Below are positions 1,869-24,000 of a stretch of DNA of 24,000 nucleotides, one piece after another; within the stretch, counting starts at the first letter, position 1; every line of letters starts with the position of its first letter. Origin of the DNA: Promethearchaeota archaeon (GTDB lineage Archaea; Asgardarchaeota; Lokiarchaeia; Sigyniarchaeales; SOKP01); NCBI GenBank assembly GCA_048941015.1, contig JBHLNZ010000021.1, forward strand, positions 8,263 through 32,262. Direction: 5' to 3'. Position numbers and translations under genes: made by a program. The notes beneath the pieces were generated by a model, which saw nothing but the letters and a program-made list of their open reading frames with translations, made no database searches and was not told the DNA's origin.

Positions 1869-3044
1869 ATGTTATTTCAACAGGTATATGGCTGGTTGGT
1901 AGGCGGAATTATAGCTGGAGTAATCGTATTTTTCTTATTTGTAATTTTTTTAGCTACAAGATATCGAAAATTTAAAACGAATCAATTTGTTATCCATTTA
2001 CGTAATGGTAAGGTAAAAAGTGCTGGACTTGGTGGCAGTATTTGGTTATTGCCATTAATAGATGAATATATTGTAATTCCTACTACAAGTATTCAAACAA
2101 TTTTAGAAGCCCACGAGCAAGTAGTTTCGATGGAATACCAAAATATTTCAATCGTCGGTATGTTGATTTGGAAAGTAATAGATCCTGAGAAAGCTTTTAG
2201 TGCAGTTTCCTGGGTAAATCGAGATGAACATTTCGTTGAAAAAATACTAAAGAATGCAGCAGAAGCAATTATAAGAACAACATGTGCAAATATGCCACTT
2301 GAAAAGATTATTAGAGAACGTCGAGAGATAATTGAACATGTAAGTAAAGAATTGCATGAACTTACTGCTGATTGGGGCTTAATAATTGAATCCATAGAAA
2401 TCCGAGAAGTAAATATATTAGAACCCGATCTGAAAAGGAATATGGAAGCTACTAAACAGGCAATAGAATTTCGAAAGGCCCGTATAGCTAAAGCTGAAGC
2501 AGAAAGGGAATCAAGAATGAGAGAATTAGAAGTTCAAAATGAAGTTGGGACACAGGAACAACTAGTACAAAGAGATATTGAAATACGCAGAAAAGAAAAA
2601 GAAATTGCGATAGCAGATCAAGAGCGAGAACGTAAAAAAATTGAGGCAGACGGAGACCGTCAGAAAAAAGTCATTGAAGCAGAAGCCGATGCAGCTTCTA
2701 TTAAGAAGAAATTAATAGCACAAGCTGAAGGTGAAGCTGAGACTATAAAACAGCAGATGTTAGCGCAAGCTGAGGGTTTTCAAAAACAAGTAGAAGCGAT
2801 GTCATCAGCGGATCAGAGATTTTTAGCTGTTCAGTTGACTAATATCTTACCCGAAATATTTAAAAATATTAATCCAGAGAAGATGTTTATTATGGGAACC
2901 GGCGATGAAGCTTTTAGTGCTTTATCAAGAGCAATACTCCCATTCTTACAGCTTGTGCCAGAGTATTCCGATAAAATAAAAAGATTTCTAGGAACTAGCG
3001 ATTTAACTAATATCAAAGAATTAGTAAGTAATATTTCAAAATAA
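1869..3044 (+). CDS. Flotillin-like SPFH/Band-7 domain protein
   Basis: GGAGGT lies 12 nt upstream of the ATG. The protein has an N-terminal TM anchor, then an SPFH core (IIESIEIREVNI...), then a long Ala/Glu-rich coiled coil (AKAEAERE..., IEAEADAASIKKKLIAQAEGEAETIKQQMLAQAEGF) typical of flotillins. Confidence 0.85.
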   Translation: MLFQQVYGWLVGGIIAGVIVFFLFVIFLATRYRKFKTNQFVIHLRNGKVKSAGLGGSIWLLPLIDEYIVIPTTSIQTILEAHEQVVSMEYQNISIVGMLIWKVIDPEKAFSAVSWVNRDEHFVEKILKNAAEAIIRTTCANMPLEKIIRERREIIEHVSKELHELTADWGLIIESIEIREVNILEPDLKRNMEATKQAIEFRKARIAKAEAERESRMRELEVQNEVGTQEQLVQRDIEIRRKEKEIAIADQERERKKIEADGDRQKKVIEAEADAASIKKKLIAQAEGEAETIKQQMLAQAEGFQKQVEAMSSADQRFLAVQLTNILPEIFKNINPEKMFIMGTGDEAFSALSRAILPFLQLVPEYSDKIKRFLGTSDLTNIKELVSNISK

Positions 3045-4215: not shown

Positions 4216-4884
4216 TTGATTCAATATATATTTTTAACGCTGTTTTTCTTATTTGGAATTATAGAAATCTATGGTGAAGTTAAAAACATCTTTAAAATTA
4301 CAATCTCACTTAGATGTGTAATGATGCCTTTACTTATTCTCTTTTATTTTTTTGCAGTACCATTTAATATCGACTGGTTCATTGTTATCGCTTTACTTTT
4401 TGGTCTTGGAGGGGATATTTTTTTAGGACTTAGAAATAAGGAAAAGTGGTTTATATTTGGGATGGTATCGTTTCTTTTTAATCAGGTATTTTATATTATC
4501 TCCTTTTTCTTATCTATAACCGATATTACAGATTTTCCACTAGAAGGCTTGTTTCTAATTATACCTGTAATGCTGATATTGTTCATCAATTTACCTAAGT
4601 TTATAAATAAGACAGCAGAAATGAAAATTCCTGTATTGGTATATATGGCGACAATTTTATTGATGCACATAGCAGCTTTATTAAGATTAGCAGATTATTC
4701 AGGGCTATCTTTTATTTTAATATATTTAGGGTCATTATTTTTTATTTTATCTGATTCTTTTGTCGCAATGGAAACATTCGGTGAGAAGTTTCCAAGAATT
4801 GAGGTTGTAAGTATGTCAACATACTTCTTAGCACAATTTTATATAACACTGGGTGCAGTGATGACAAGTTTGTTGATACTTTAA
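4216..4884 (+). CDS. YhhN-family (lysoplasmalogenase-like) polytopic membrane protein
   Basis: TTG start. About 7-8 hydrophobic helices. It contains LLFGLGGDIFL and the FFILSD motif characteristic of the YhhN/TMEM86 family. Confidence 0.65.
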   Translation: MIQYIFLTLFFLFGIIEIYGEVKNIFKITISLRCVMMPLLILFYFFAVPFNIDWFIVIALLFGLGGDIFLGLRNKEKWFIFGMVSFLFNQVFYIISFFLSITDITDFPLEGLFLIIPVMLILFINLPKFINKTAEMKIPVLVYMATILLMHIAALLRLADYSGLSFILIYLGSLFFILSDSFVAMETFGEKFPRIEVVSMSTYFLAQFYITLGAVMTSLLIL

Positions 4885-4991
4885 TTTAAATAAAACACAT
4901 TTTTTTTTAATTTTAAAATAAAATTTTTCAATAACTAAAAATTTCAAAAGTTATAAGTGATTTTTATTAATAATTAAATTAATTAAAACCC

Positions 4992-5064
4992 GCCTCTGTT
5001 GCTTAGCAGGTAGAGCGTTGCCTTGGTAAGGCAAAGGTCGGGGGTTCAAATCCCCCCAGGGGCT
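4992..5064 (+). tRNA. tRNA-Thr(GGU): tRNA-Thr (anticodon GGU), intron-less, no encoded CCA
   Basis: Hand-folded cloverleaf. Acceptor GCCTCTG/CAGGGGC, D arm GCTT-AGCAGGTA-GAGC, anticodon arm TTGCC-TTGGTAA-GGCAA, variable AGGTC, T arm GGGGG-TTCAAAT-CCCCC, discriminator T. Confidence 0.9.
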
Positions 5065-5089
5065 AAAAATTAAGTATGTGTAAAATGGA

Positions 5090-5222
5090 GCCGGTGTGGC
5101 TTAGTTGGTTATAAAGTCTATTTGAAATTAGACTTAATAGGCACCAGACTCATAATCCATCTGAAAAATTGGGTCAGAAAGATGAACTCTGGAGGTCGTG
5201 GGCTCATATCCCACCACCGGCA
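5090..5222 (+). tRNA. tRNA-Met/Ile2(CAU): tRNA with CAU anticodon (elongator Met or Ile2) interrupted by two introns
   Basis: Acceptor GCCGGTG/CACCGGC. The D stem GCTT...AAG|C is split by a ~25-nt insert (about 5117-5141) containing the hairpin GTCTA-N8-TAGAC. The anticodon arm CCAGA-CTCATAA-TCTGG is split by a ~32-nt insert (about 5156-5187) at or next to the canonical 37/38 site. T arm GTGGG-CTCATAT-CCCAC, discriminator A. Removing 57 nt gives a 76-nt cloverleaf. A G1-C72 pair and no GGG/CCC in the anticodon stem argue against an initiator. Confidence 0.65.
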
Positions 5223-5326
5223 TTATTCCTTTAAATTTTTTTTAATATTATTGTAAACTTTTAAATAGGATGCTCACACTAATTGATTTACTTCAAATCC
5301 AATTTTTAAAAAAAAAATAGAGGTAA

Positions 5327-5656
5327 TTGATTATGGTAATATTAATTTCAACTACTAAATTTCCTCTTTCTAAAGCAAAAGCGGTAGCAGAAAGATATAT
5401 TGAGGTTTCAAAAAAGTATCCTCCTGATAAGTCCTTAGAGAAGCATATTCTCCGTATGGCTGCAAGGATTAGAGGAGATGAAGTTGAGTCTATCACTGTT
5501 TCAGAAGTGAAGGAGGGTAAATTAGCAGAAGTATTAAAAAGAGGAATAGAACAACAACTATTATACTCTGATATTGAGGGAATGAAATTTAAAGTAGACA
5601 CTTACTTCTCAGGGACAGAAGCTTTAGCAATGGTGGGCCTTAAAATGCCTGAATAA
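5327..5656 (+). CDS. Hypothetical small soluble protein (109 aa; more likely starts at ATG 5333)
   Basis: GAGGT at 5320-5324 precedes ATG 5333. The composition is balanced and charged, unlike the overlapping antisense ORF 5293-5601. No motif was recognised. Confidence 0.45.
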   Translation: MIMVILISTTKFPLSKAKAVAERYIEVSKKYPPDKSLEKHILRMAARIRGDEVESITVSEVKEGKLAEVLKRGIEQQLLYSDIEGMKFKVDTYFSGTEALAMVGLKMPE

Positions 5657-11779: not shown

Positions 11780-12643
11780 TTGAGAATATATATGGGTACT
11801 CAAGTTTTTCTTATAAATCCAGATGGAACCACAACTGAAATAAAATCTGAAGGGTCAATTAAAGATGTTTTAAAAACTGAAGATTGCTATGTTCTAGTTT
11901 CTGATGATATTAGGAAGGTATATCTATGGAAAGGATTGGAGAGCAATGTGAGATCAAAGTTTATTGGTGCCAAAAGGAGCCAAGAAATACGTGGACAAGT
12001 CGGTATGCATTATGCAGTTGTTCCCCAGGATGAAGGGGATGAAGAAGCTGAATTTTTAAAATTAATAGGCGGGAAGACAGAAGGAGGTATAGCTAAAGAA
12101 ATAAAAGCAGAACAAGCGTCTGTTGCTAAACCTGCCCCATCAGTTCACCCACTGAGGGAAAAGGATACTTTTGGAGCTCCAAAGCCAGCCCAAGGTATGA
12201 ATATTGCTGGAAGTAGAGATCGTATTGCTCAAAATACAGGCCCCTTATATAGAGGACAAGAATCTATGTCTATGCTCATGGAGGACGAGGTTAAAATAAA
12301 TTTTGAACAAATAATGCAAAAATTGGAAGAAATTAAAATGCCTGATGGATTTGAAAGGGAATTAATAATTATTGGAAATCATGCTTATTCAGTTGTAGAG
12401 AGAGTACAGACCTTCTTAGGAGAGAAACAAGTAACTAAAGAAATATCGAAGGTAGGAGCTGTCCCTGAGGGAATCTTTTTTGCTGAAGATTATTCTCCAA
12501 GAATTTTATCAGAAAATGGTAAAATTCTAGCTATAGAATTCTTAAAACGGACAACTGGACCAAAAGATACTACAGTTGAATTCAAATCTAAAAAAGAAAT
12601 TTTAAAAGATCAAATAAAAACTCAGCTTGAAGGTAAAAAATAG
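11780..12643 (+). CDS. Gelsolin/cofilin-fold domain protein with an uncharacterised C-terminal domain (1DGelX-like architecture); probable start at ATG 11792
   Basis: The N-terminal ~100 aa follow the gelsolin-repeat pattern: DCYVLVSDD-IRKVYLWKGLESNVRSKFIGAKRSQEIRGQ...VVPQDEGDEEAEFLKLIGG (compare gelsolin DxYIL / IYxWxG / xxE...A / EG-E-x-F). A ~60-aa linker of disordered appearance and a ~125-aa domain without a recognised motif follow. Confidence 0.7.
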   Translation: MRIYMGTQVFLINPDGTTTEIKSEGSIKDVLKTEDCYVLVSDDIRKVYLWKGLESNVRSKFIGAKRSQEIRGQVGMHYAVVPQDEGDEEAEFLKLIGGKTEGGIAKEIKAEQASVAKPAPSVHPLREKDTFGAPKPAQGMNIAGSRDRIAQNTGPLYRGQESMSMLMEDEVKINFEQIMQKLEEIKMPDGFERELIIIGNHAYSVVERVQTFLGEKQVTKEISKVGAVPEGIFFAEDYSPRILSENGKILAIEFLKRTTGPKDTTVEFKSKKEILKDQIKTQLEGKK

Positions 12644-12860: not shown

Positions 12861-13250
12861 ATGAGCGATTTAACTCCAGAAGAAGCACATTCATTATCAA
12901 AATTTCTTGGGAATATTACTGAACATACTGAACTGGAGGCTCTTGCCTTAGTGACACGTGATGGTTTACGTCTTGCTTTTTCTTGCATTCCAGATTATGA
13001 AGTCGATCCGGATCTATTTTCAAGTCTAAGTGCTGTAGTAATGCAAAGCGGACAGGATGCTATTGATTCTCTGGGTTATACTCATTTATTGGAAGTAGTT
13101 TTAAGAGGCGCAGATGCTTTTATTATTTTGAGTGCTGCTGGGAGATTCTTCTTAATGGGTGCAAGTAGAAAAATTGAAGATTTAGGTAAAATTGTAACGG
13201 TTTTTAGATATTATGCTGGAGAAATCGGGAAACGCTACCCTCTAACATAA
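12861..13250 (+). CDS. Roadblock/LC7 (MglB-like) domain protein
   Basis: A 129-aa single domain. LEALALVTRDGLRLA, an acidic loop, LLEVVLRGADAFIILSAAGRFFLMG and LGKIV follow the Roadblock/LC7 longin-like pattern. Confidence 0.75.
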   Translation: MSDLTPEEAHSLSKFLGNITEHTELEALALVTRDGLRLAFSCIPDYEVDPDLFSSLSAVVMQSGQDAIDSLGYTHLLEVVLRGADAFIILSAAGRFFLMGASRKIEDLGKIVTVFRYYAGEIGKRYPLT

Positions 13251-16248: not shown

Positions 16249-16650
16249 ATGAAGGAAGTAAAAGTACTATCGATAGACGATCGTGGCAGGATCGTAATTC
16301 CTCAAATAATAAGAAAATCTCTCGGTCTAACCACAAACTCTCAATTAATAATGGTAAGCGATTCAGAAACAAAAGAAATAAAAATCACTCCTATAGGATT
16401 AGGTGGAGAGAAAATTCCAATTAAATTAAGAATTACTATGAAAGATATACCGGGAGCTCTAGCTAAACTTGCGACAACTTTCGGAGAGCATGGTCTAAGT
16501 ATGATGTATAGTGAAGCTGTAATAGTAGAGAAGGATAAGAAAGCTGTATGGACTGTTATTTCTGAAAGCCCCAGCAATTTAAATGAATTAAAAGAAACTT
16601 TAAAAGAGAAGGGAGAAGCAATAGAAGTTGAAGTTTTACCTTTAGAATAG
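16249..16650 (+). CDS. AbrB/SpoVT-type DNA-binding domain fused to an ACT domain (putative ligand-responsive regulator)
   Basis: The N-terminus SIDDRGRIVIPQIIRKSLGL is the swapped-hairpin AbrB/SpoVT signature. The C-terminus LRITMKDIPGALAKLATTFGEHGLSM...AVWTVISE follows the ACT pattern. Confidence 0.65.
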   Translation: MKEVKVLSIDDRGRIVIPQIIRKSLGLTTNSQLIMVSDSETKEIKITPIGLGGEKIPIKLRITMKDIPGALAKLATTFGEHGLSMMYSEAVIVEKDKKAVWTVISESPSNLNELKETLKEKGEAIEVEVLPLE

Positions 16651-16682: not shown

Positions 16683-17411
16683 ATGGCAAAAAAAAAAAAG
16701 AAGGATAAAGAAAAAGATCCTATTTCAGAATATTCATTAGACAGTACATTAAAATCCTCGAAAAAAACCAAAACAGATTTACAGGGATTATTAAGAGGAT
16801 TTTCTGAAGAGAAAGGATTTGGAGCACCGAAAGAAGAAGAAAGAATAAAGCCCCAATTATCATATGAGAGTAAGAAACAAATTGCTGAAGATTATATAAT
16901 GGAAGATATTCCTCTCAGTGAGAGAGAGAAGATAAAAGAAGAAAAAATTAAATTAGAGTCCGTAGAAGAAAAAGTAGTAGAGCTTAAGAAAGATGAAGAA
17001 TCTTCTTCCAAACCAATAAGTACTAAAGAAAAACCTTCTTTTTCGAAGAAAGATGATATCTATTTAAAGTTATCAAATTTTTTTGAAGAACTTTTTGTGG
17101 GTTATAATGAACGTTATGACAGATGGGAGAACTCAGTTTCAGCGTTACTTGCAATTTTAAGAAAAATGAGAAAAATAACTAAAAAAAATACTGAAGATTT
17201 AGTCTCAACAATCAATAATCAATATGAAAAAATACAAAAGAACCTTGAAGAATTTAAAATTAAGCGAGATGAGATAGAAAAAATCTCAGATGTAGATATC
17301 GAAATAATGTCAAGTGAATTTAAAAAAGTTTTGGGGTTATTAGAACTTCAAGTCAAAGAATACCAATTAAAGAAATTAACTGATGAGTATATTCATCAAT
17401 ATAAACTATAA
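16683..17411 (+). CDS. Lys/Glu-rich protein with a C-terminal helical/coiled-coil domain, hypothetical
   Basis: It starts MAKKKKKDKEKD, encoded by an A12 run. Residues ~1-125 are low-complexity K/E/S-rich. Residues ~125-242 look helical with heptad-like spacing. It lies 55 nt upstream of the actin-related gene on the same strand. Confidence 0.5.
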   Translation: MAKKKKKDKEKDPISEYSLDSTLKSSKKTKTDLQGLLRGFSEEKGFGAPKEEERIKPQLSYESKKQIAEDYIMEDIPLSEREKIKEEKIKLESVEEKVVELKKDEESSSKPISTKEKPSFSKKDDIYLKLSNFFEELFVGYNERYDRWENSVSALLAILRKMRKITKKNTEDLVSTINNQYEKIQKNLEEFKIKRDEIEKISDVDIEIMSSEFKKVLGLLELQVKEYQLKKLTDEYIHQYKL

Positions 17412-17466: not shown

Positions 17467-18621
17467 ATGAGTTTCCCCAATAAAGATCAGTTACGTCCTT
17501 TAATTCTTAATATCGGAAGTAATACTTTCAAAATGGGTTGGGCAGGAGATGATTTTCCCGATATTATCGCTCCAAGCATATATGTTGATGTTTCTGATTA
17601 CCTATATACTTCAGATGTAATTGACGGCTTAGAAGAGATTTATATTAATGAGGAAACTCAAAACCATTTGGTTGGACATCAAGCATTAAAATATCAAGAT
17701 ATCTTAAAAATTCACGAATTTAAAAAAGAAAAGAATTATAATTTGCTTACTAAATTTTTTTATTATTATTATAACCAATTAAAAATATCTTTAGAATTAC
17801 AATATAGGCAGCCACTAATTATACTTTTACCTTTTTTTAGTTCAGAATTAGAAAAAACTAAATTACAAGAAATTTTTTTCGAATCCTGTAATTTTCCAGC
17901 TATTTTATTTTTAGATGAAGCTCAAGCTATATTATCTACATTAGACAAGTCTAGTGGAGTGATTATAAATATTGGAGAATCAAATACGTATATCTCTACA
18001 ATATTTCATGGTTTTACGAATATAATGGCCCGAGATCTTTTTCCTGTAGCTGGGAAGGAATTAACAAATTATCTATTAAATTTAATTTTAGCAAGGAAAA
18101 GTTTAGTAAAAAATGTACATGTTGATAAAACTATAGCAAAAGAAGTTAAAGAAAAGTTATCTTTATGTCTTATAGATCCAGATACTGAAAAAAAAAGAGT
18201 TAAAGAAGGTTTAACTAAATATGATCGTACTATAGATCTACCAGATGGTTCTAGTTTAAAAATAAATTTAGAACGTTTTTTATTGGCAGAACCCCTATTT
18301 AATCCAAAACTTATACATATCGATTATATTGGATTAGCGGAAGCAGTATCTAAAGTGGTAAAATCCTGGGAGAGAGAAAACTGGGAAGATTTAGTGTCTA
18401 ATGTTATTTTAGCAGGTGGAGGAAGTTTAATATCTGGTCTTGATCGAAGATTAGAATTGGAATTAAAAAATTTCTTTTCAGAAAGATTAAAGCCAAAAAT
18501 AAAAGTAGTTGCTGCTTCAGGTCGAGAGAATATGGGTTGGATTGGAGCATCAATTCTTTATTCGAAGGGGCAATTACAAAAAGGTTGGGTTAAAAATCCT
18601 AATTTAGAAAATACAATTTAG
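17467..18621 (+). CDS. Actin-related protein (divergent member of the actin/Arp clade)
   Basis: The protein is colinear with eukaryotic actin throughout. [16 protein letters not shown] matches [42 protein letters not shown] matches [46 protein letters not shown] matches [21 protein letters not shown], and [10 protein letters not shown] matches VWIGGSILAS. Confidence 0.9.
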   Translation: [384 protein letters not shown]

Positions 18622-18684: not shown

Positions 18685-21273
18685 ATGACTGTTGATTTAG
18701 AGAGAAAAAAAGATTTTTTAGAAAATTTTCAAAAATATGTTATTCAAGGTAGGAAGTTATTACAATCTGCTAATCATAGATGGGCAGATCGATTATTCAC
18801 AGAATTATATTTCGAAATTGAAAAGAATGAATGGCTCGGTATACAAAGAAAGCATCAATTGATAATGATTATCTCTAACTCGTGGTGGATGTATATAAAT
18901 TCGTTAACTAAAGGAATCAATAGTCAAGCAGAAATGGATATTATTCGTTATATTGATGCGTATAAAAGATTTTTTTCTTTCTTATCGAGATTAGATGATT
19001 TCTATTTATTTAATAATTTTGCTACTAATCTTTTGAGATCATTTATTGGTTTTGAAAATTTATCTCAAAAAGGAATCACTAAATTCATTAATTCTTTTTG
19101 TGCTAAAGTTAGTGAAAGAGGAGAGTATCTTAAATTAATTGAATTGCAACTATTGTTGATGTTTTTAAGGAAATCTGTAATCCCTCAAGAGTTTTTTCAT
19201 TTTAGTATGGAGACTCTTGGAAGGACACTTTTTAAATTAGAACCGGCAAAGAGAGCTCTATTTTTATATATATTTTTGGAAAATGTTAATATTAATTATC
19301 AGCTTATTGATGACTCAGATGAATTCATCAAAATTATGAGTAAAATTTTAGTAAATCGAATTCCTAGTTATTTAAAAACTGAATTTAGCAATTTAGGTAG
19401 AATTACTATAAATCAGAGAAATTTTAATTTCATTTTAAATGATTTAGAAGATCTAATCCAATATTTAAATTATATTGGAGAAAATGTCTGGATTGCTGTT
19501 ATTATAAAAAACTTATTTTATAAAATTGAGCGATTTCAGTCGTTCGGAGATGCTGTGACATACATAAGAAAATTTATAGATTATGCAATAGCTAGAAATA
19601 GGTTTGAAATTGCCTTTGAGATATATGATTTTTTAGAAGATATTTTCTTGTCTAAAACTGATTTAGGATACGATAATATTTTAATTGAGTTATGGGTTGA
19701 AGCATGCAAGAAATTCGTAGAAATGAAAGAAAAAAAATATTTATTACAATCTCTAGAAAAATTAAATACTCATTTAAAAACGCCACAGACAAATGCACAA
19801 ATATTTCATTATTTTTATACCTGTAATTTATTATGGAAGTTTAAATCTATGTTCTTTTCTTTGGAACAAAGAGATTTTTGGCGAATGATGTTTTATCGAG
19901 CTCTTTTTGAAGAAAAAGACTATGATTTAGCAAGAAAAATATGTCCATATCTTGATAAGAATATTGGGTCTCAAATAGTTGATCCATCTATATTATTCCG
20001 GGAAAGCCAGGAGTTGCAAAAAGAGATATATTCCTTTAAAAATGAGGAGAATTTTTCTGAATTAGAGACTATGGCTTTTATTATAAAACAAATTATATTT
20101 CGAATAAATTCAGATGGGTTAATTTCATTTAGGATGATTTCTCAAGATAATGCTATGTTAGAAGGTAAAATTTCTGATGAGTTTTGGAATGATGCTCAAA
20201 TAAATGAAATATATTACGATCTTTTTAACCTTAATGAAGTAAAAAAGTTTGATTTTACATTGAAAGAATTTGGAAAATTACTATATATCTTTTTACCAAA
20301 AAAGATAAGGTATTTTTTCAAACATTTTGAGATTAAAGCACTTGATTTTGTACCGGAAATATATTTTATATTGGATCAGATGGCTGTGCCATTTGAAATG
20401 ATTTATGATAATAATTTTTTTTTGTTAAAATATTCTATAGGGTATATAATTGGGGAACCTCCTTTAGGTGGAGTCACTTTTGGATATGAAGACTCCTTAG
20501 AAGAACAAGCGGCTGTGAAAAAAAATAAATTCAATGTGCTAATTATTGAATGCACTAATTCCAAAAATCCTTTAAAATGGAATGAAGAGTCAAAATCAAA
20601 AGAAATTGTTTTTCCTTTCACGGCAGGCATTAATGAATTAAACTATATTATTGAATTTTTTAATAATAGGGAAGAAATAGATCAATTCACCATACTCTCT
20701 GGAGATTACTCTACTAAGGAAAACATTTTATCCAAAATTTTAGAAAGTAATAATCATATAATTCATTTTGTTGGTAATATATTTTATTCAAAATGGAATC
20801 CACAAGATAGCTTTATGATTACAAATGATAATGAAATATTAACATTTAGGAGCATAAATAAGGCAATTGAACAAAATCAATATATAAATGAAACACTTCT
20901 GTTTTTCAATTCTCAGGTGTTCGATGTAAAAGGAGAAAAATTACAGAATGTCTTGAGACCATTTGGAGAAATTGCCCAAAATTTTAATTATAATAAAATA
21001 ACAGGAATAATTTCACGAAATTATCCTATTTTCGATGATGAAACTAAAGAGATTAGTGCTAACTTTTATATACACTTATTCAAGAATTATAGTCAAGGAA
21101 TTGCTCTTTTGAAAGCAAGACAAGAATGCATGGCTAAAAAGATGACTAAACTTGTCGAGGAAAAATTTCAAACTCTAAGTGAAGAAGAAGGAATTATTAA
21201 CATTGATTTAGAGAGCTCTTTAGCAATTTCAAGTTACATACTCTTTGGAAAACCTTGGAAAACTATCATTTGA
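18685..21273 (+). CDS. Large helical-repeat (TPR-like) protein with a C-terminal CHAT (caspase-like, clan CD) domain lacking the canonical His/Cys dyad
   Basis: The C-terminal ~340 aa follow the CHAT profile. LGKLLYIFLPKKIRYFF...ALDFVPEIYFILDQMAVPFEMIY and NHIIHFVGNIFYS match the position of the xHxaxHG motif. NETLLFFNSQVFD matches the position of vvLsaCxs. YPIFDDETKEISANFYIHLFKNYSQGIALLKARQ matches WpvdDxxaxxlmxxFYxxLxxGxsxaeALrxAq. The N-terminal ~520 aa are all-helical and repeat-like. Confidence 0.7.
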   Translation: MTVDLERKKDFLENFQKYVIQGRKLLQSANHRWADRLFTELYFEIEKNEWLGIQRKHQLIMIISNSWWMYINSLTKGINSQAEMDIIRYIDAYKRFFSFLSRLDDFYLFNNFATNLLRSFIGFENLSQKGITKFINSFCAKVSERGEYLKLIELQLLLMFLRKSVIPQEFFHFSMETLGRTLFKLEPAKRALFLYIFLENVNINYQLIDDSDEFIKIMSKILVNRIPSYLKTEFSNLGRITINQRNFNFILNDLEDLIQYLNYIGENVWIAVIIKNLFYKIERFQSFGDAVTYIRKFIDYAIARNRFEIAFEIYDFLEDIFLSKTDLGYDNILIELWVEACKKFVEMKEKKYLLQSLEKLNTHLKTPQTNAQIFHYFYTCNLLWKFKSMFFSLEQRDFWRMMFYRALFEEKDYDLARKICPYLDKNIGSQIVDPSILFRESQELQKEIYSFKNEENFSELETMAFIIKQIIFRINSDGLISFRMISQDNAMLEGKISDEFWNDAQINEIYYDLFNLNEVKKFDFTLKEFGKLLYIFLPKKIRYFFKHFEIKALDFVPEIYFILDQMAVPFEMIYDNNFFLLKYSIGYIIGEPPLGGVTFGYEDSLEEQAAVKKNKFNVLIIECTNSKNPLKWNEESKSKEIVFPFTAGINELNYIIEFFNNREEIDQFTILSGDYSTKENILSKILESNNHIIHFVGNIFYSKWNPQDSFMITNDNEILTFRSINKAIEQNQYINETLLFFNSQVFDVKGEKLQNVLRPFGEIAQNFNYNKITGIISRNYPIFDDETKEISANFYIHLFKNYSQGIALLKARQECMAKKMTKLVEEKFQTLSEEEGIINIDLESSLAISSYILFGKPWKTII

Positions 21274-21357: not shown

Positions 21358-21897
21358 TTGTCAGATAGATTATTAGAACTTAGGATAGAAAATCAAAGAT
21401 TAAAAGAACAAGTTCAAGATTTAGAATCGAAAGTATTATCTTTAGTTGGTATGACTCATTTAGAATCCTCTGGGGGCCAGCAAAAGAAAGATATATTAAA
21501 TCAACACATCATTGAGTTGATTTATTCAACAAATACACAATTAAATATAGTTTCTCCAAAAATTGATAAATTTTATGCTACTGAAATCAAGAATTTAGTA
21601 CAAAAAGGGATTCCTGTTTTAATTATTACAAATGATAGAGGCTCCATTCCAAAAGGATACCAAGAAATTTATGATGAAATTAAGTTGTTTCAATCAGTTA
21701 AAATAATAAATAATCCAAATGTTAGATATTTATTAGTTTTTAACTCTAAAGAAGCAATTTATTCTGGAGGTTCATTAGATAAAGAAGAGTTAGAGAAAAC
21801 AATATTAATTATGACAAAAGTAAAAGAATCCACTCAATTAAGAAAAATTGCTGAAATATTTAGTCAAATGTTACCCTCTTTTATGAGAAAAGGATAG
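21358..21897 (+). CDS. Small protein: N-terminal coiled coil + degenerate PLD/TrmB-C-like domain, hypothetical
   Basis: TTG start. The N-terminus LLELRIENQRLKEQVQDLESKVLSL looks like a leucine-zipper. LNIVSPKIDKFYATEIKNLVQKGIPVLIITN ... VRYLLVFNSKEAIYSGGSLD parallels the PLD repeat (i.i.sPy...l..a..rGV.V.il ... HxKxxxxD...a.iGS.N), but the H, K, D and N positions are substituted. Confidence 0.35.
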   Translation: MSDRLLELRIENQRLKEQVQDLESKVLSLVGMTHLESSGGQQKKDILNQHIIELIYSTNTQLNIVSPKIDKFYATEIKNLVQKGIPVLIITNDRGSIPKGYQEIYDEIKLFQSVKIINNPNVRYLLVFNSKEAIYSGGSLDKEELEKTILIMTKVKESTQLRKIAEIFSQMLPSFMRKG

Positions 21898-21980: not shown

Positions 21981-22118
21981 ATGGTGGAAAATTCTGTAAA
22001 AAAAGAAAAACAAAAGAAGAAGAATAAGATAGAAGAAGATGAGAAAAATACAAATTCTGATCATGATTTTGATTGGGATTGGATCTTTGATAAAGAATGG
22101 TTGAGAACAAAAAAGTAA
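21981..22118 (+). CDS. Possible 45-aa ORF (Lys/Glu-rich N-terminus, acidic-aromatic DHDFDWDWIFDKEW C-terminus) overlapping the methyltransferase start
   Basis: The ORF runs from ATG 21981 to TAA 22116-22118 and is below the ORF-track size cut-off. Its 3' end overlaps the next ORF (ATG 22097) by 22 nt. There is no family assignment, and it could be non-coding. Confidence 0.25.
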   Translation: MVENSVKKEKQKKKNKIEEDEKNTNSDHDFDWDWIFDKEWLRTKK

Positions 22119-24000
22119 TAAATTCGGAAAGAATTACAGAAATTTTTGGCCTAAAGTCTGAAATCTATAATGAAATAATGAAATCTTTTGAAAAAGAACT
22201 CGTTAATGAAAAAGATCTATTTCTAAAGAAATATAATAATTGGAATTTGTTATTTAAAAATATTTTTGGAAGCCAAATTGAAAGAACGCTATTTCTAAAA
22301 CAAACCTATCTTTCTCAGATATTGAAAATTTTAATATTATTTAAATTAAAAAATGATACAGATGTGAATCAATTTTGTGATGCCTATAAATTCTATAACT
22401 TAGAAGAGTATGGTTTAATTGAGTTAAAGTACTTTAATTGGATTGAAATAAATGAACAAATTATAAAAAAGATCTATAATATTTTAAACAAATCGGATTT
22501 CTCTAACGAAGATTTATTTCATGAAGTATACCAAGATATCTTTTCTTCCAAAATACGTCATAAAGCTGGAGAGTTTTATACGATTCCTCTTTTGGTCAAT
22601 AAAATGGTCAATGATGTTTATAAGTTTGGAATGAGAGTATTAGATCCTTCCTGTGGTTCAGGAAGCTTCTTAATACAAATAATAATAAGTATTTTAAAAT
22701 CTCAAATGCCATTTAAGGACAAAATTGATGCGATTAATAATGTTTATGGTTTCGATGTTAATCCTTTAGCAATATTAACAGCGAAATCAAATATTCTTTT
22801 ATTTTTTTTAAGTCAATTTGATCTAAAAAGTAATTCAATCCCTAAAATCAATATATTTTTACTTGATTCTCTTTTTCCTGAAGATTTTGAAAAAAATTCT
22901 TCAATAAATCTGAAAAAATTATATTCGAGTTTTGATCTCGCAATAGGGAACCCTCCTTGGTTAACTTATAAAGATATTAATAATTCGAATTATCAAAAAA
23001 AAATTAGATTATTAGCTGAATCTTTAAATATTAAACCTCGTAGTCAATATATCACCCATATTGAATTAGCATCAATTTTTTTTTATGCTATCCCTTTAAA
23101 ATTTTTAAAAATGGGGGGAGAAATATTATTCGTCATAACGAAAAGTGTATTGAATGGGGATCATTGCTTTAAATTCAGGAGTTTTTCTATATTTGAAAAC
23201 TTAGAAATTTGGGATTTCCCCAAGAATTATTTTTTTAATGTCGATCATATTTGCTTGAAAGCAAAGTTTGTTGGAGCTGGAAAGAGACAGTCAATTTCAT
23301 CCAAATACCCGATTAACTCTAAAATTTTTAATGATAAACTCGAATTACAAAATACTATCAAATATACAAGTATAAAATGTGAAGAGGATGGAGCAAAAAT
23401 TATTCTTCCCGAATATGAAGTTAAAAGATTAAATGAACTTAGAAAAAGTCCTTATAAGGAAAAGTTTCTCCAAGGAGCTACTTTAGTTCCAAGAACTCTC
23501 GTTTTCTTCGAAATAAATGATAAAAATAATCAATATCTAAAAATTTCTTCTGATAGTGATATTCTTTTACGTGCTAAAAAAAAATGGAAGTTCACTTTTA
23601 AAAACGTTGAGATTGAAAATAGATTTAGATTTAAATCCTTTTTAAATATGGATTTAATTCCTTTTCTTATAAAAAAATATCGAAATGTTTTTTTACCTAT
23701 TAATTCTGAATTTGAGTTTAAAATTGAGTTTCTTAAAAAAAATCCAAAAGCATTTATATTCTATAATAAATTGAATGATTTTTATAAAAGAAACAAAAAA
23801 AGCACAAGTAATATCAATACATTATTTGAAAATTTGAACTATTGGAATAAACTTACAAAACAATTTAAGAATAAGAAATATATTGTTGTATATAATGCTA
23901 GTGGTTCAAATTTAAAAGCTGCTGTAATAAATAATGAAAAAAAAAATATTGTTATTGACTCAGAAAATTATTATCTCTCAACAGATTCTTTAAATGAAGC
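22097..24000 (+). CDS. N6-adenine DNA methyltransferase, Eco57I/TaqI-like gamma class (possibly type IIG/IIL or BREX PglX-like); 3' partial, runs off the window
   Basis: This ORF was hand-translated and is not in the supplied track. It is uninterrupted from ATG 22097 (in-frame TAA at 22091) to the window end, more than 634 codons. It has motif X/AdoMet region AGEFYTIPLLVNKMV, motif I VLDPSCGSGSFL and motif IV FDLAIGNPPW. The N-terminal ~150 aa is a helical domain, and the long C-terminal region is consistent with a target-recognition domain. Confidence 0.85.
   Translation, partial: MVENKKVINSERITEIFGLKSEIYNEIMKSFEKELVNEKDLFLKKYNNWNLLFKNIFGSQIERTLFLKQTYLSQILKILILFKLKNDTDVNQFCDAYKFYNLEEYGLIELKYFNWIEINEQIIKKIYNILNKSDFSNEDLFHEVYQDIFSSKIRHKAGEFYTIPLLVNKMVNDVYKFGMRVLDPSCGSGSFLIQIIISILKSQMPFKDKIDAINNVYGFDVNPLAILTAKSNILLFFLSQFDLKSNSIPKINIFLLDSLFPEDFEKNSSINLKKLYSSFDLAIGNPPWLTYKDINNSNYQKKIRLLAESLNIKPRSQYITHIELASIFFYAIPLKFLKMGGEILFVITKSVLNGDHCFKFRSFSIFENLEIWDFPKNYFFNVDHICLKAKFVGAGKRQSISSKYPINSKIFNDKLELQNTIKYTSIKCEEDGAKIILPEYEVKRLNELRKSPYKEKFLQGATLVPRTLVFFEINDKNNQYLKISSDSDILLRAKKKWKFTFKNVEIENRFRFKSFLNMDLIPFLIKKYRNVFLPINSEFEFKIEFLKKNPKAFIFYNKLNDFYKRNKKSTSNINTLFENLNYWNKLTKQFKNKKYIVVYNASGSNLKAAVINNEKKNIVIDSENYYLSTDSLNE

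Follow-up and report, generated by a model that had tools for sequence, protein, structure and literature searches.

What might an actin-fold protein do once it has lost the residues of an efficient ATPase? This question is raised by a 24,000-nucleotide stretch of DNA from a Promethearchaeota archaeon of the Lokiarchaeia (assembly GCA_048941015.1, contig JBHLNZ010000021.1, positions 8,263 to 32,262; referred to here as the window, with positions counted from its first letter). The window encodes an actin-related protein, designated Arp, together with three neighboring genes, designated partners 1 to 3. We put at about 0.5 the probability that the Arp is a nucleotide-binding, hydrolysis-impaired subunit of a four-protein complex with these three partners. 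Corresponding modules in sister clades, built around Arps that are about 30% identical to the one studied here, are the decisive support for the module. A preliminary description of the locus, made by eye from the sequence, had reported an actin-clade protein with substitutions at key nucleotide-hydrolysis residues, and its claims are taken up below with the results that bear on them.

An actin fold with a modified nucleotide site

The gene and the elements of its product considered in this section are as follows.

17467–18621, + strand: Arp, 384 aa, ATG start, identified as an open reading frame (ORF) with a Pfam Actin match
17500–17538, + strand: phosphate-1 loop, residues 12–24, with the N15 codon at 17509–17511 and with S18, N19 and K22
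17587–17667, + strand: subdomain-2 segment with the D-loop equivalent, from the family hidden Markov model (HMM) aligned to beta-actin
17923–17925, + strand: Gln153 (actin Q137), Q in 120 of 121 family members
17956–17997, + strand: phosphate-2 loop, residues 164–177, with the N168 codon at 17968–17970 and the Y175 codon at 17989–17991
18409–18426, + strand: adenosine motif LAGGGS, residues 315–320, opposite actin LSGGTT

The Arp matches the Pfam Actin profile (PF00022) with an E value of 1.6e-50 over residues 7–376 of the protein and positions 2–393 of the 410 in the profile; the score is 172 bits for a cut-off of 27 bits, and a chance match is excluded. In a phmmer search of the PDB, the closest match was 9wc4_A, annotated as 'HC1 actin' (E=1.1e-41), and next came Plasmodium actin II with some 60 further actins (E values of 1e-36 to 1e-39); the top 60 PDB matches were all actins, and no crenactin-, ParM- or MreB-type protein was present among them. 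Models for MreB, MamK, FtsA and BeeR scored only 15–30 bits on the Arp, far under their cut-offs (MreB_Mbl, 26 bits). An AlphaFold2 (AF2) model generated from 55 family sequences was of moderate quality (predicted local distance difference test [pLDDT] score, 68.8; predicted template-modeling [TM] score, 0.67; subdomain 4, residues 189–286, below 50) and superposed on actins with TM-scores of 0.64–0.70, displaying the four-subdomain actin fold. The Arp is a full-length actin-fold protein of an Asgard archaeon. The preliminary description had thus assigned the ORF to the right family with exact coordinates, and the structure prediction that it had proposed as a check returned the expected fold. 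Its observation that the LPDG...ERF...EPLF.P segment of actin subdomain 4 is colinear in the Arp was likewise reproduced by phmmer and BLASTP. So was its view that the protein is much more divergent than the lokiactins, since the Arp is 26% identical to beta-actin by BLASTP (with a beta-actin sequence that was 98.9% identical to database clusters in a control), compared with about 58% identity to actin for lokiactin (PMC12050087).

The register of the nucleotide-binding loops was taken from three alignments: phmmer against PDB actins, an HMM of the 121-sequence family against beta-actin, and BLASTP. It was the same in all three, with LNIGSN opposite actin VDNGSG. In the phosphate-1 loop, N15, S18, N19 and K22 of the Arp correspond to actin D11, S14, G15 and K18. 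In the phosphate-2 loop, which lies opposite actin VMDSGDGVTH, N168, G170, E171, S172 and Y175 correspond to D154, G156, D157, G158 and H161. The HMMER and BLAST alignments equate Q153 with Q137 through a 'QA[IV]LS' match, while one large MAFFT alignment places the Q137 column two residues off; the former placement was preferred because 'QA[IV]LS' matches in the other three alignments. The by-eye register (N15 at D11, N19 at G15, N168 at D154, Y175 at H161 and Q153 at Q137) was therefore not shifted, and no Asp or His occupies the corresponding catalytic positions of the Arp in the profile alignment. The codons for N15, N168 and Y175 read AAT, AAT and TAT. A 99% identical Arp from an independent assembly (P0001) carries N15 and the other substitutions too, so N15 is not a sequencing error.

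Within the family of 121 sequences, position 168 (actin D154) is N in 104, S in 12 and D in 5, giving N or S in 116, and position 175 (actin H161) is Y in 63, S in 27, T in 11, N in 10 and F in 5, with a single His. Position 171 (actin D157) is E in 115, and no member has Gly at position 19 (actin G15). Furthermore, position 15 (actin D11) retains D in 103 members, and the others have E (10), N (6) or Q (2). Three relatives that are 81–90% identical to the Arp (P0002–P0004) keep D at this position, and non-Asp residues there are spread over at least three separate lineages, with one change lying inside a group of >90% identity. Judged from these patterns, D11N is a recent, lineage-specific change of the Arp and its 99% identical twin, and the loss of D154 and H161 is the ancestral trait of the family; of the substitutions reported in the preliminary description, the latter two proved to be family-wide and the first did not. 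The repeated replacement of D11 by N, Q or E is the pattern expected under relaxed selection and suggests that catalysis has come under weaker constraint.

Other parts of the site are retained. The residues kept from actin comprise G13, S14, K18 (as R/K), Q137, G156, D157 (as E), K213 and E214 (Arp K228 and E229), G301-G302 and R335. In the family, G17, G317 and G318 are invariant, the last two being the counterparts of actin G301 and G302, and S/T18 and R/K22 are conserved. Nowhere is the protein more actin-like than at the nucleotide-site positions, with 40% identity compared with 26% overall. Work on actin and on the equivalent Asp-to-Asn mutants of Hsc70 indicates that nucleotide binding usually survives such changes, with hydrolysis strongly slowed. 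Since the hydrolysis constellation is degraded and the Arp retains most contacts to the phosphates, ribose and adenine, it is reasonable to predict that the Arp binds nucleotide and hydrolyzes it poorly.

Subdomain 2 of the Arp has about 11 residues more than that of actin (gaps of 2 and 9 residues in actin), and its D-loop equivalent is acidic where actin has hydrophobic residues. Within the family, D44, S49, G54 and L55 of this segment are invariant and Y45, D50, I52 and E56 are at least 90% conserved. At the contact positions of filamentous actin (F-actin) in published filament structures, the Arp is 28% identical to actin on the pointed face, 21% on the barbed face and 16% at lateral contacts. 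These positions are no more actin-like than the whole protein, and their within-family conservation is 0.84. The C terminus lies opposite approximately G366 of actin, so that about 9 actin residues (367–375) are missing, fewer than the roughly 20 given in the preliminary description; most family members are 10–14 aa longer than the Arp, with nonconserved tails.

A search of 5.8 billion proteins yielded at least 369 homologues, of which the best 120 are 63–99% identical to the Arp and 380–401 aa long. Among these 120, nearly all those with a named source come from Asgard metagenome-assembled genomes (MAGs), mostly labeled 'Promethearchaeota/Lokiarchaeota', and one is labeled 'Bacterial actin-related protein [subsurface metagenome]'; homologues are annotated as hypothetical or as 'actin-related protein'. 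A genome scan placed the family in 49 species-level genomes, all Promethearchaeota apart from one contig label. That contig (DATKTW010000028.1), labeled 'Candidatus Nanopelagicaceae bacterium', has a complete Lokiarchaeial cluster and is most likely mis-binned. With a mean column identity of 72% over at least 121 sequences, the gene is under strong constraint and is not decaying. Among 1.84 billion representatives at 50% identity, the family has one full-length representative (P0076, 597 bits), after which the next relatives reach at most 32% identity and about 200 bits, with no intermediates to other actins. The Arp family is tight and isolated. Ranked just below it are four eukaryotic proteins with two complete tandem actin domains (P0125, P0127, P0129 and P0139, the named ones from Anaeramoeba); these were rejected as closest eukaryotic relatives, their high scores being the sum of two domains.

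A four-gene module shared with sister clades

The Arp gene is the second of four genes on the same strand, separated by gaps of 55–84 nt. The three partners are as follows.

16683–17411, + strand: partner 1, 242 aa, with a basic N terminus (MAKKKKK), a disordered region and a C-terminal helical domain
18685–21273, + strand: partner 2, 862 aa, characterized by an AF2 model, Foldseek and Pfam CHAT
21358–21897, + strand: partner 3, 179 aa, with an N-terminal coiled coil and a PLD-like domain

Counting only those of the 49 Lokiarchaeial (Loki) loci whose contig has room, partner 1 lies upstream of the Arp in 48 of 48 and partner 2 downstream of it in 44 of 44; partner 3 is present in 34 of 36. In these loci, too, the genes share one strand and are separated by short gaps. 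The intergenic regions are AT-rich and contain TATA-like strings throughout; operon status is not claimed. Two loci are irregular. In the closest genome (L001, Arp 81% identical), no partner 3 homologue was detected after the 862-aa gene (region 4338–5355) despite the room available, and the 862-aa gene of L041 (11144–12130) looks shortened to 328 aa. Both irregularities could reflect gene loss or assembly problems.

Six sister Arps, the nearest relatives outside the family among the 1.84 billion representatives (28–32% identical to the Arp and 22–27% identical to actin), stand beside the same partners, listed here in gene order.

L050, GC content 68%: helical protein, Arp P0132, 833-aa protein
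L051, GC content 62%: Arp P0126, large protein cut by the contig end
L052, GC content 40%: 210-aa protein, Arp P0135, 889-aa protein, 173-aa protein
L053, GC content 39%: Arp P0128, 862-aa protein, 237-aa helical protein
L054, GC content 33%: 230-aa protein, Arp P0134, 858-aa protein, 173-aa protein
L055, GC content 35%: 266-aa protein, Arp P0130, 867-aa protein, 172-aa protein

A homologue of partner 1 was identified by BLASTP in L050 (35% identity; E=9e-25) and by the partner 1 family HMM in L052, L053, L054 and L055 (E=2e-25 to 1.4e-36). Homologues of partner 2 follow all the sister-clade Arps examined (hhalign probability, 98–99%; HMM E=1e-37 to 8e-78), and homologues of partner 3 are found in L052, L054 and L055 (HMM E=2e-53 to 2e-56). 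In these last three loci, genes for a histone, a Hef helicase-nuclease and a PHP protein precede the module, while the Loki synteny takes in YjeF, gelsolin-like, Roadblock, VWA and methyltransferase-like genes. Because the surrounding genes differ between clades, the module moves as a unit. The four genes are co-conserved across deep sequence divergence. In the sister Arps, H161 is also gone (R or S), and D154 is kept in one clade and replaced by S in the other. A multi-pass membrane protein of about 380–410 aa follows the module in L052 (10482–11714), L054 (10387–11532) and L055 (10407–11642); the window holds no homologue of it.

An unrooted neighbor-joining (NJ) tree, which has a centractin as its one named Arp and is open to long-branch attraction, set the module-linked Arps apart from every other actin-family sequence sampled in 200 of 200 bootstrap replicates. 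This grouping is independently backed by the shared gene context. The only named Arp among the best 150 of the 1.84 billion representatives is one centractin (Arp1), which lies, like the actins, across this 100% split; the other names recovered for 30 representatives were Asgard MAG labels and some divergent actins of protists. Used together as a profile query, the two GC-rich sister Arps retrieved no sequences but themselves.

The conserved part of partner 1 is its C-terminal helical domain (approximately residues 125–242, about 115 aa; 17055–17408). The disordered region is variable and of low complexity, with two conserved short motifs. One conserved motif, sLDsALKSSKKTE..LQgLL, lies at residues ~15–45 (window 16683–16900). 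Its LKSSKKTE string recalls the LKKT actin-binding motif of WH2/thymosin proteins, a likeness that could be due to chance in such a lysine-rich, low-complexity context. In L050 (1–165), the partner 1 homologue has a proline-rich AAPPG repeat before the helical domain, and its ORF is cut by the contig end.

The AF2 model of partner 2 (pLDDT, 80.5) begins with alpha-solenoid or TPR-like repeats over residues ~1–445 and ends with a CHAT/caspase-like alpha/beta domain at residues ~615–862 (20527–21270), with a small beta domain in the middle. Foldseek matched it to the TPR-CHAT anti-sigma factor DdvA, SAVED-CHAT, human and yeast separase, the TPR domain of LGN and caspase-9, with entries including 8rot, 8tl0, 9hms/9hma, 5u1s and 7nj1; the global TM-scores are low (0.11–0.18) because only domains superpose. 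The Pfam CHAT profile recognizes 40 of the 51 members of the family (best E=1.6e-8), and PDB sequence searches with the 862-aa protein and with its C-terminal domain returned nothing meaningful. No His or Cys is invariant in the CHAT-like domain across the family alignment. The strands expected to carry the dyad, assigned from the strand pattern and not by residue-level structural alignment, read HFVGN and FFNSQ, and N698, N742 and Q744 are invariant. The His/Cys pair is also absent from five sister-clade homologues. Partner 2 is therefore a pseudoprotease that cannot act as a cysteine protease, since no clade examined has the dyad.

The PLD-like domain of partner 3 is recognized by Pfam PLDc_2 in 9 of 13 members (best E=7.2e-6), with the window copy below threshold, and weak matches were found to DrmC (E=0.0032) and PssA. 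No His or Lys is invariant in the 13-sequence alignment, and the HKD motif, HxK(x)4D, is thus missing.

Genes surrounding the module

Outside the module, the following genes were recorded in the window.

887–1762 and 1869–3044, + strand: NfeD/YqiJ-like membrane protein, then SPFH/Band-7 protein, a common pair unrelated to the Arp
11780–12643, + strand: protein of 287 aa in which a gelsolin repeat is weakly matched at the N terminus (Pfam Gelsolin E=7.8e-4, below the cut-off) and the C-terminal half has no assigned domain
12861–13250, + strand: Roadblock/LC7 protein, 129 aa
13365–15557, + strand: 730-aa protein with a C-terminal VWA domain and no assigned domain in the N-terminal ~490 residues
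15688–16098, + strand: glyoxalase/VOC-family gene, between the VWA and AbrB-ACT genes
16249–16650, + strand: AbrB/MazE-type DNA-binding and ACT domain protein, 133 aa (Pfam match)
22097–24000, + strand, continuing past the window end: ORF of >634 aa whose NPPW motif (AIGNPPWL) is of the kind commonly seen in N6-adenine methyltransferases

The AbrB-ACT gene lies directly upstream of the module, a position conserved in 45 Loki loci. No homologue of it was found beside the sister-clade modules, and its product is probably not a core module member. The gelsolin-like gene, about 5 kb upstream of the Arp, keeps its relative position in 32 of the 49 Loki loci, and its product may belong to the 'GelX' type that has been reported for gelsolins of L. 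ossiferum and Thor. The Roadblock/LC7 and VWA genes occur together upstream of the module in 32–37 of the 49 loci; the glyoxalase/VOC gene has no counterpart in the 49 related loci and looks like a lineage-specific insertion. In 29 loci, homologues of the methyltransferase-like protein (32–51% identity) are encoded downstream of the module, at a distance of about 1 kb or greater. Neither the window nor the flanking sequence of the 49 loci contains a lokiactin gene.

A putative Arp-containing complex

We propose that the Asgard-specific Arp, which keeps an actin-type nucleotide pocket and has lost the residues of an efficient ATPase, joins its three co-inherited partners in a hetero-oligomeric structural or regulatory complex. 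Within it, partner 1 would be a disordered-plus-helical adaptor, partner 2 a large TPR and pseudo-CHAT scaffold of separase-like architecture, and partner 3 a coiled-coil and pseudo-PLD protein. The nucleotide would serve as a structural or slow-switch cofactor, as in eukaryotic Arps of stable complexes, and the Arp would not itself build a dynamic filament. On the most economical reading, the four proteins, each resembling an enzyme with its catalytic residues gone or degraded, make up a complex with a structural or regulatory role; that all three partners look like enzymes devoid of such residues is typical of scaffolds. We infer that the four proteins associate physically and that actin-like polymerization does not occur; the latter is favored because the F-actin contacts are only 16–28% identical, the D-loop is acidic and the C-terminal tail is short and variable. 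Of the roles considered in the preliminary description, that of a non-polymerizing regulatory Arp is closest to this proposal: the module points to a regulatory or structural subunit, encoded by the second gene of a co-conserved set and not by a lone Arp gene.

Several points weigh against such a complex. Gene adjacency is no proof of physical association, and binding, ATPase activity and polymerization are all predicted from sequence. Q137 is kept, and N or E can still coordinate the Mg-water, which leaves room for residual hydrolysis or for hydrolysis stimulated by a partner. Actins of bacteria and archaea polymerize via contacts unlike those of actin, which makes filaments compatible with poor conservation of the F-actin contacts, and the family itself conserves these positions well. 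Only moderate quality was reached by the AF2 model of the Arp (pLDDT of 68.8, subdomain 4 below 50). Finally, synteny within the 49 Loki loci is weak evidence, extending as it does to unrelated housekeeping genes (YjeF, methyltransferase-like), and real weight lies only in the sister-clade comparisons, which rest on six loci.

The conservation of surfaces within the family also lends itself to a different explanation, in which the Arp forms its own stable, slowly or non-hydrolyzing homopolymer distinct from lokiactin, with the partners as nucleator, anchor or regulators. The full four-subdomain fold would permit this, the family strongly conserves the surface segments equivalent to the D-loop, W-loop and plug, filaments that have lost hydrolysis would be stable, and many prokaryotic actin-like proteins polymerize despite unrelated contact residues (PMC12050087). 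However, D11 has been repeatedly replaced, no actin-like hydrophobic D-loop is present, and the tail that in actin completes the barbed-end groove is short and variable. In L. ossiferum, furthermore, the non-lokiactin homologues, which may or may not belong to the Arp family, are expressed several-fold below lokiactin, and only one actin-like filament type has been reported (PMC9834061). On balance, we consider a separate filament unlikely, but a serious alternative. A role at the ends of lokiactin filaments, as raised in the preliminary description, would have the Arp cap or nucleate them by mimicking an end subunit in the manner of Arp2/3 or Arp11, perhaps with its partners, and so overlaps with the proposed complex. 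It is in line with the Arp being closer to actins than to any other solved protein, with the retained LPDG...ERF...EPLF segment, with the gelsolin-like gene in conserved Loki synteny and, if a resemblance in so low-complexity a context has any meaning, with the LKKT-like string of partner 1. Nevertheless, neither the barbed nor the pointed face is more actin-like than the protein average, so the contacts give capping or nucleation no direct support; the gelsolin linkage is missing from the sister-clade modules, and the main text of a preprint on lokiactin co-immunoprecipitation in L. ossiferum mentions no Arp (bioRxiv 10.1101/2025.11.30.690169). Such a role seems quite improbable.

The partner folds could also be read as signs of a defense or mobile-element system in which the actin-fold protein serves as an ATPase or sensor. 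CHAT proteases, PLD nucleases and nearby methyltransferases are common in such systems, and the cluster combines CHAT and PLD folds, a weak DrmC match and a methyltransferase-like ORF downstream. In contrast, PADLOC returned no significant match for the module proteins, the sole one being the marginal DrmC hit of the 179-aa protein, and the catalytic dyad and HKD motif are absent from every clade examined. The module also keeps a stable position among housekeeping genes in 49 species-level genomes, its divergence looks vertical, and no integrase or repeats were seen. The PADLOC result and the missing catalytic residues led us to reject this explanation as highly improbable. Even less credence is due to the idea that the substitutions reflect an alignment artifact or a decaying pseudogene. 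Although the Q137 column shifts in the MAFFT alignment, the registers of both phosphate loops agree by three methods, and the ORF is intact, recurs in an independent assembly and belongs to a family with high mean identity; this explanation was tested and rejected.

If the proposed four-protein complex is followed further, a tentative and rather doubtful extension would be an Asgard 'Arp complex', consisting of a nucleotide-locked Arp, a separase-like TPR and pseudo-protease scaffold, a disordered and helical adaptor and a pseudo-PLD dimer, that acts on the lokiactin cytoskeleton or tethers it to membranes. A complex of this kind would be a prokaryotic counterpart of the eukaryotic Arp machines, whether independent or ancestral, and would be older than the split of several Asgard lineages.

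Relative to actin and lokiactin, the Arp shares the fold, colinearity over about 370 residues, the phosphate-loop glycines, S14, K18, Q137, K213/E214, G301-G302 and the LPDG...ERF...LF.P segment. It differs from actin in D154N, H161Y, G15N, G158S and, in its own lineage, D11N, as well as in the enlarged subdomain 2 with its acidic D-loop equivalent, the shorter C terminus and the unconserved F-actin contacts; from lokiactin it is set apart by its 26% identity to actin as opposed to about 58%. Lokiactin is not the only actin homologue known from Lokiarchaeia, which also encode ARP-like ones (Rodrigues-Oliveira et al. 2022, PMC9834061; Spang et al. 2015, cited therein), and L. ossiferum has three ARPs, expressed several-fold below lokiactin and uncharacterized (PMC9834061). 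The Arp shares with such Asgard ARPs that they are PF00022 paralogues of Lokiarchaeial genomes, more divergent than lokiactin, patchy in distribution and functionally uncharacterized. Judged from peptides derived from reverse transcription-quantitative PCR primers (PMC9834061), UYP44711.1 is ambiguous and none of the L. ossiferum ARPs could be mapped to the Arp family; UYP44126.1, considered by the same means, does not fit as a member, since it is without the subdomain-2 insertion. Lokiactin itself, an Arf GTPase, a profilin and gelsolin-homology proteins are reported to be significantly enriched in the lokiactin co-immunoprecipitation from L. ossiferum (bioRxiv 10.1101/2025.11.30.690169). Within an incomplete coverage of the literature, no publication was found that ties an Asgard ARP to fixed partner genes or notes the combined loss of D154 and H161, and no description of the module was found in work on Asgard archaea with ARP, CHAT or separase.

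Some eukaryotic Arps serve as stable, poorly hydrolyzing subunits of complexes, namely Arp4 and Arp8 on the HSA helix in INO80/SWR1, Arp7/9, and Arp1/Arp11 in dynactin. From this background, complex-bound eukaryotic Arps resemble the Arp in their divergent fold, degraded catalytic constellation and helical or coiled-coil partners, and by analogy the Arp may plausibly be a structural, nucleotide-locked subunit like them. The likeness to poorly hydrolyzing Arps drawn in the preliminary description thus extends to the degraded constellation and the kept pocket contacts, but membership of a eukaryotic Arp subfamily is not supported, nor is a position of the Arp within the actin and Arp clade as opposed to beside it. 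Centractin lies across the 100% NJ split, and those complexes have no counterpart to the TPR and pseudo-CHAT or pseudo-PLD partners. Partner 2 in turn shares with TPR-CHAT proteins of the Csx29/DdvA type, SAVED-CHAT and separase a helical-repeat solenoid followed by a clan-CD caspase-like domain. Unlike TPR-CHAT and separase, it has no His/Cys dyad in any clade, and no sequence-level PDB relative was found.

We conclude that the Arp itself is a member of a known, poorly studied kind and that the module-linked clade with its pseudoenzyme partners is a variant that seems to be new. An Arp clade accompanied by the same three partner genes provides concrete candidates for an Arp-containing complex in an archaeon, and the question of Asgard Arp function thereby becomes directly testable. 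The family also appears to offer a natural case of an actin fold that has kept its nucleotide pocket under a relaxed constraint on the residues of hydrolysis, which bears on how eukaryotic Arps became structural subunits.

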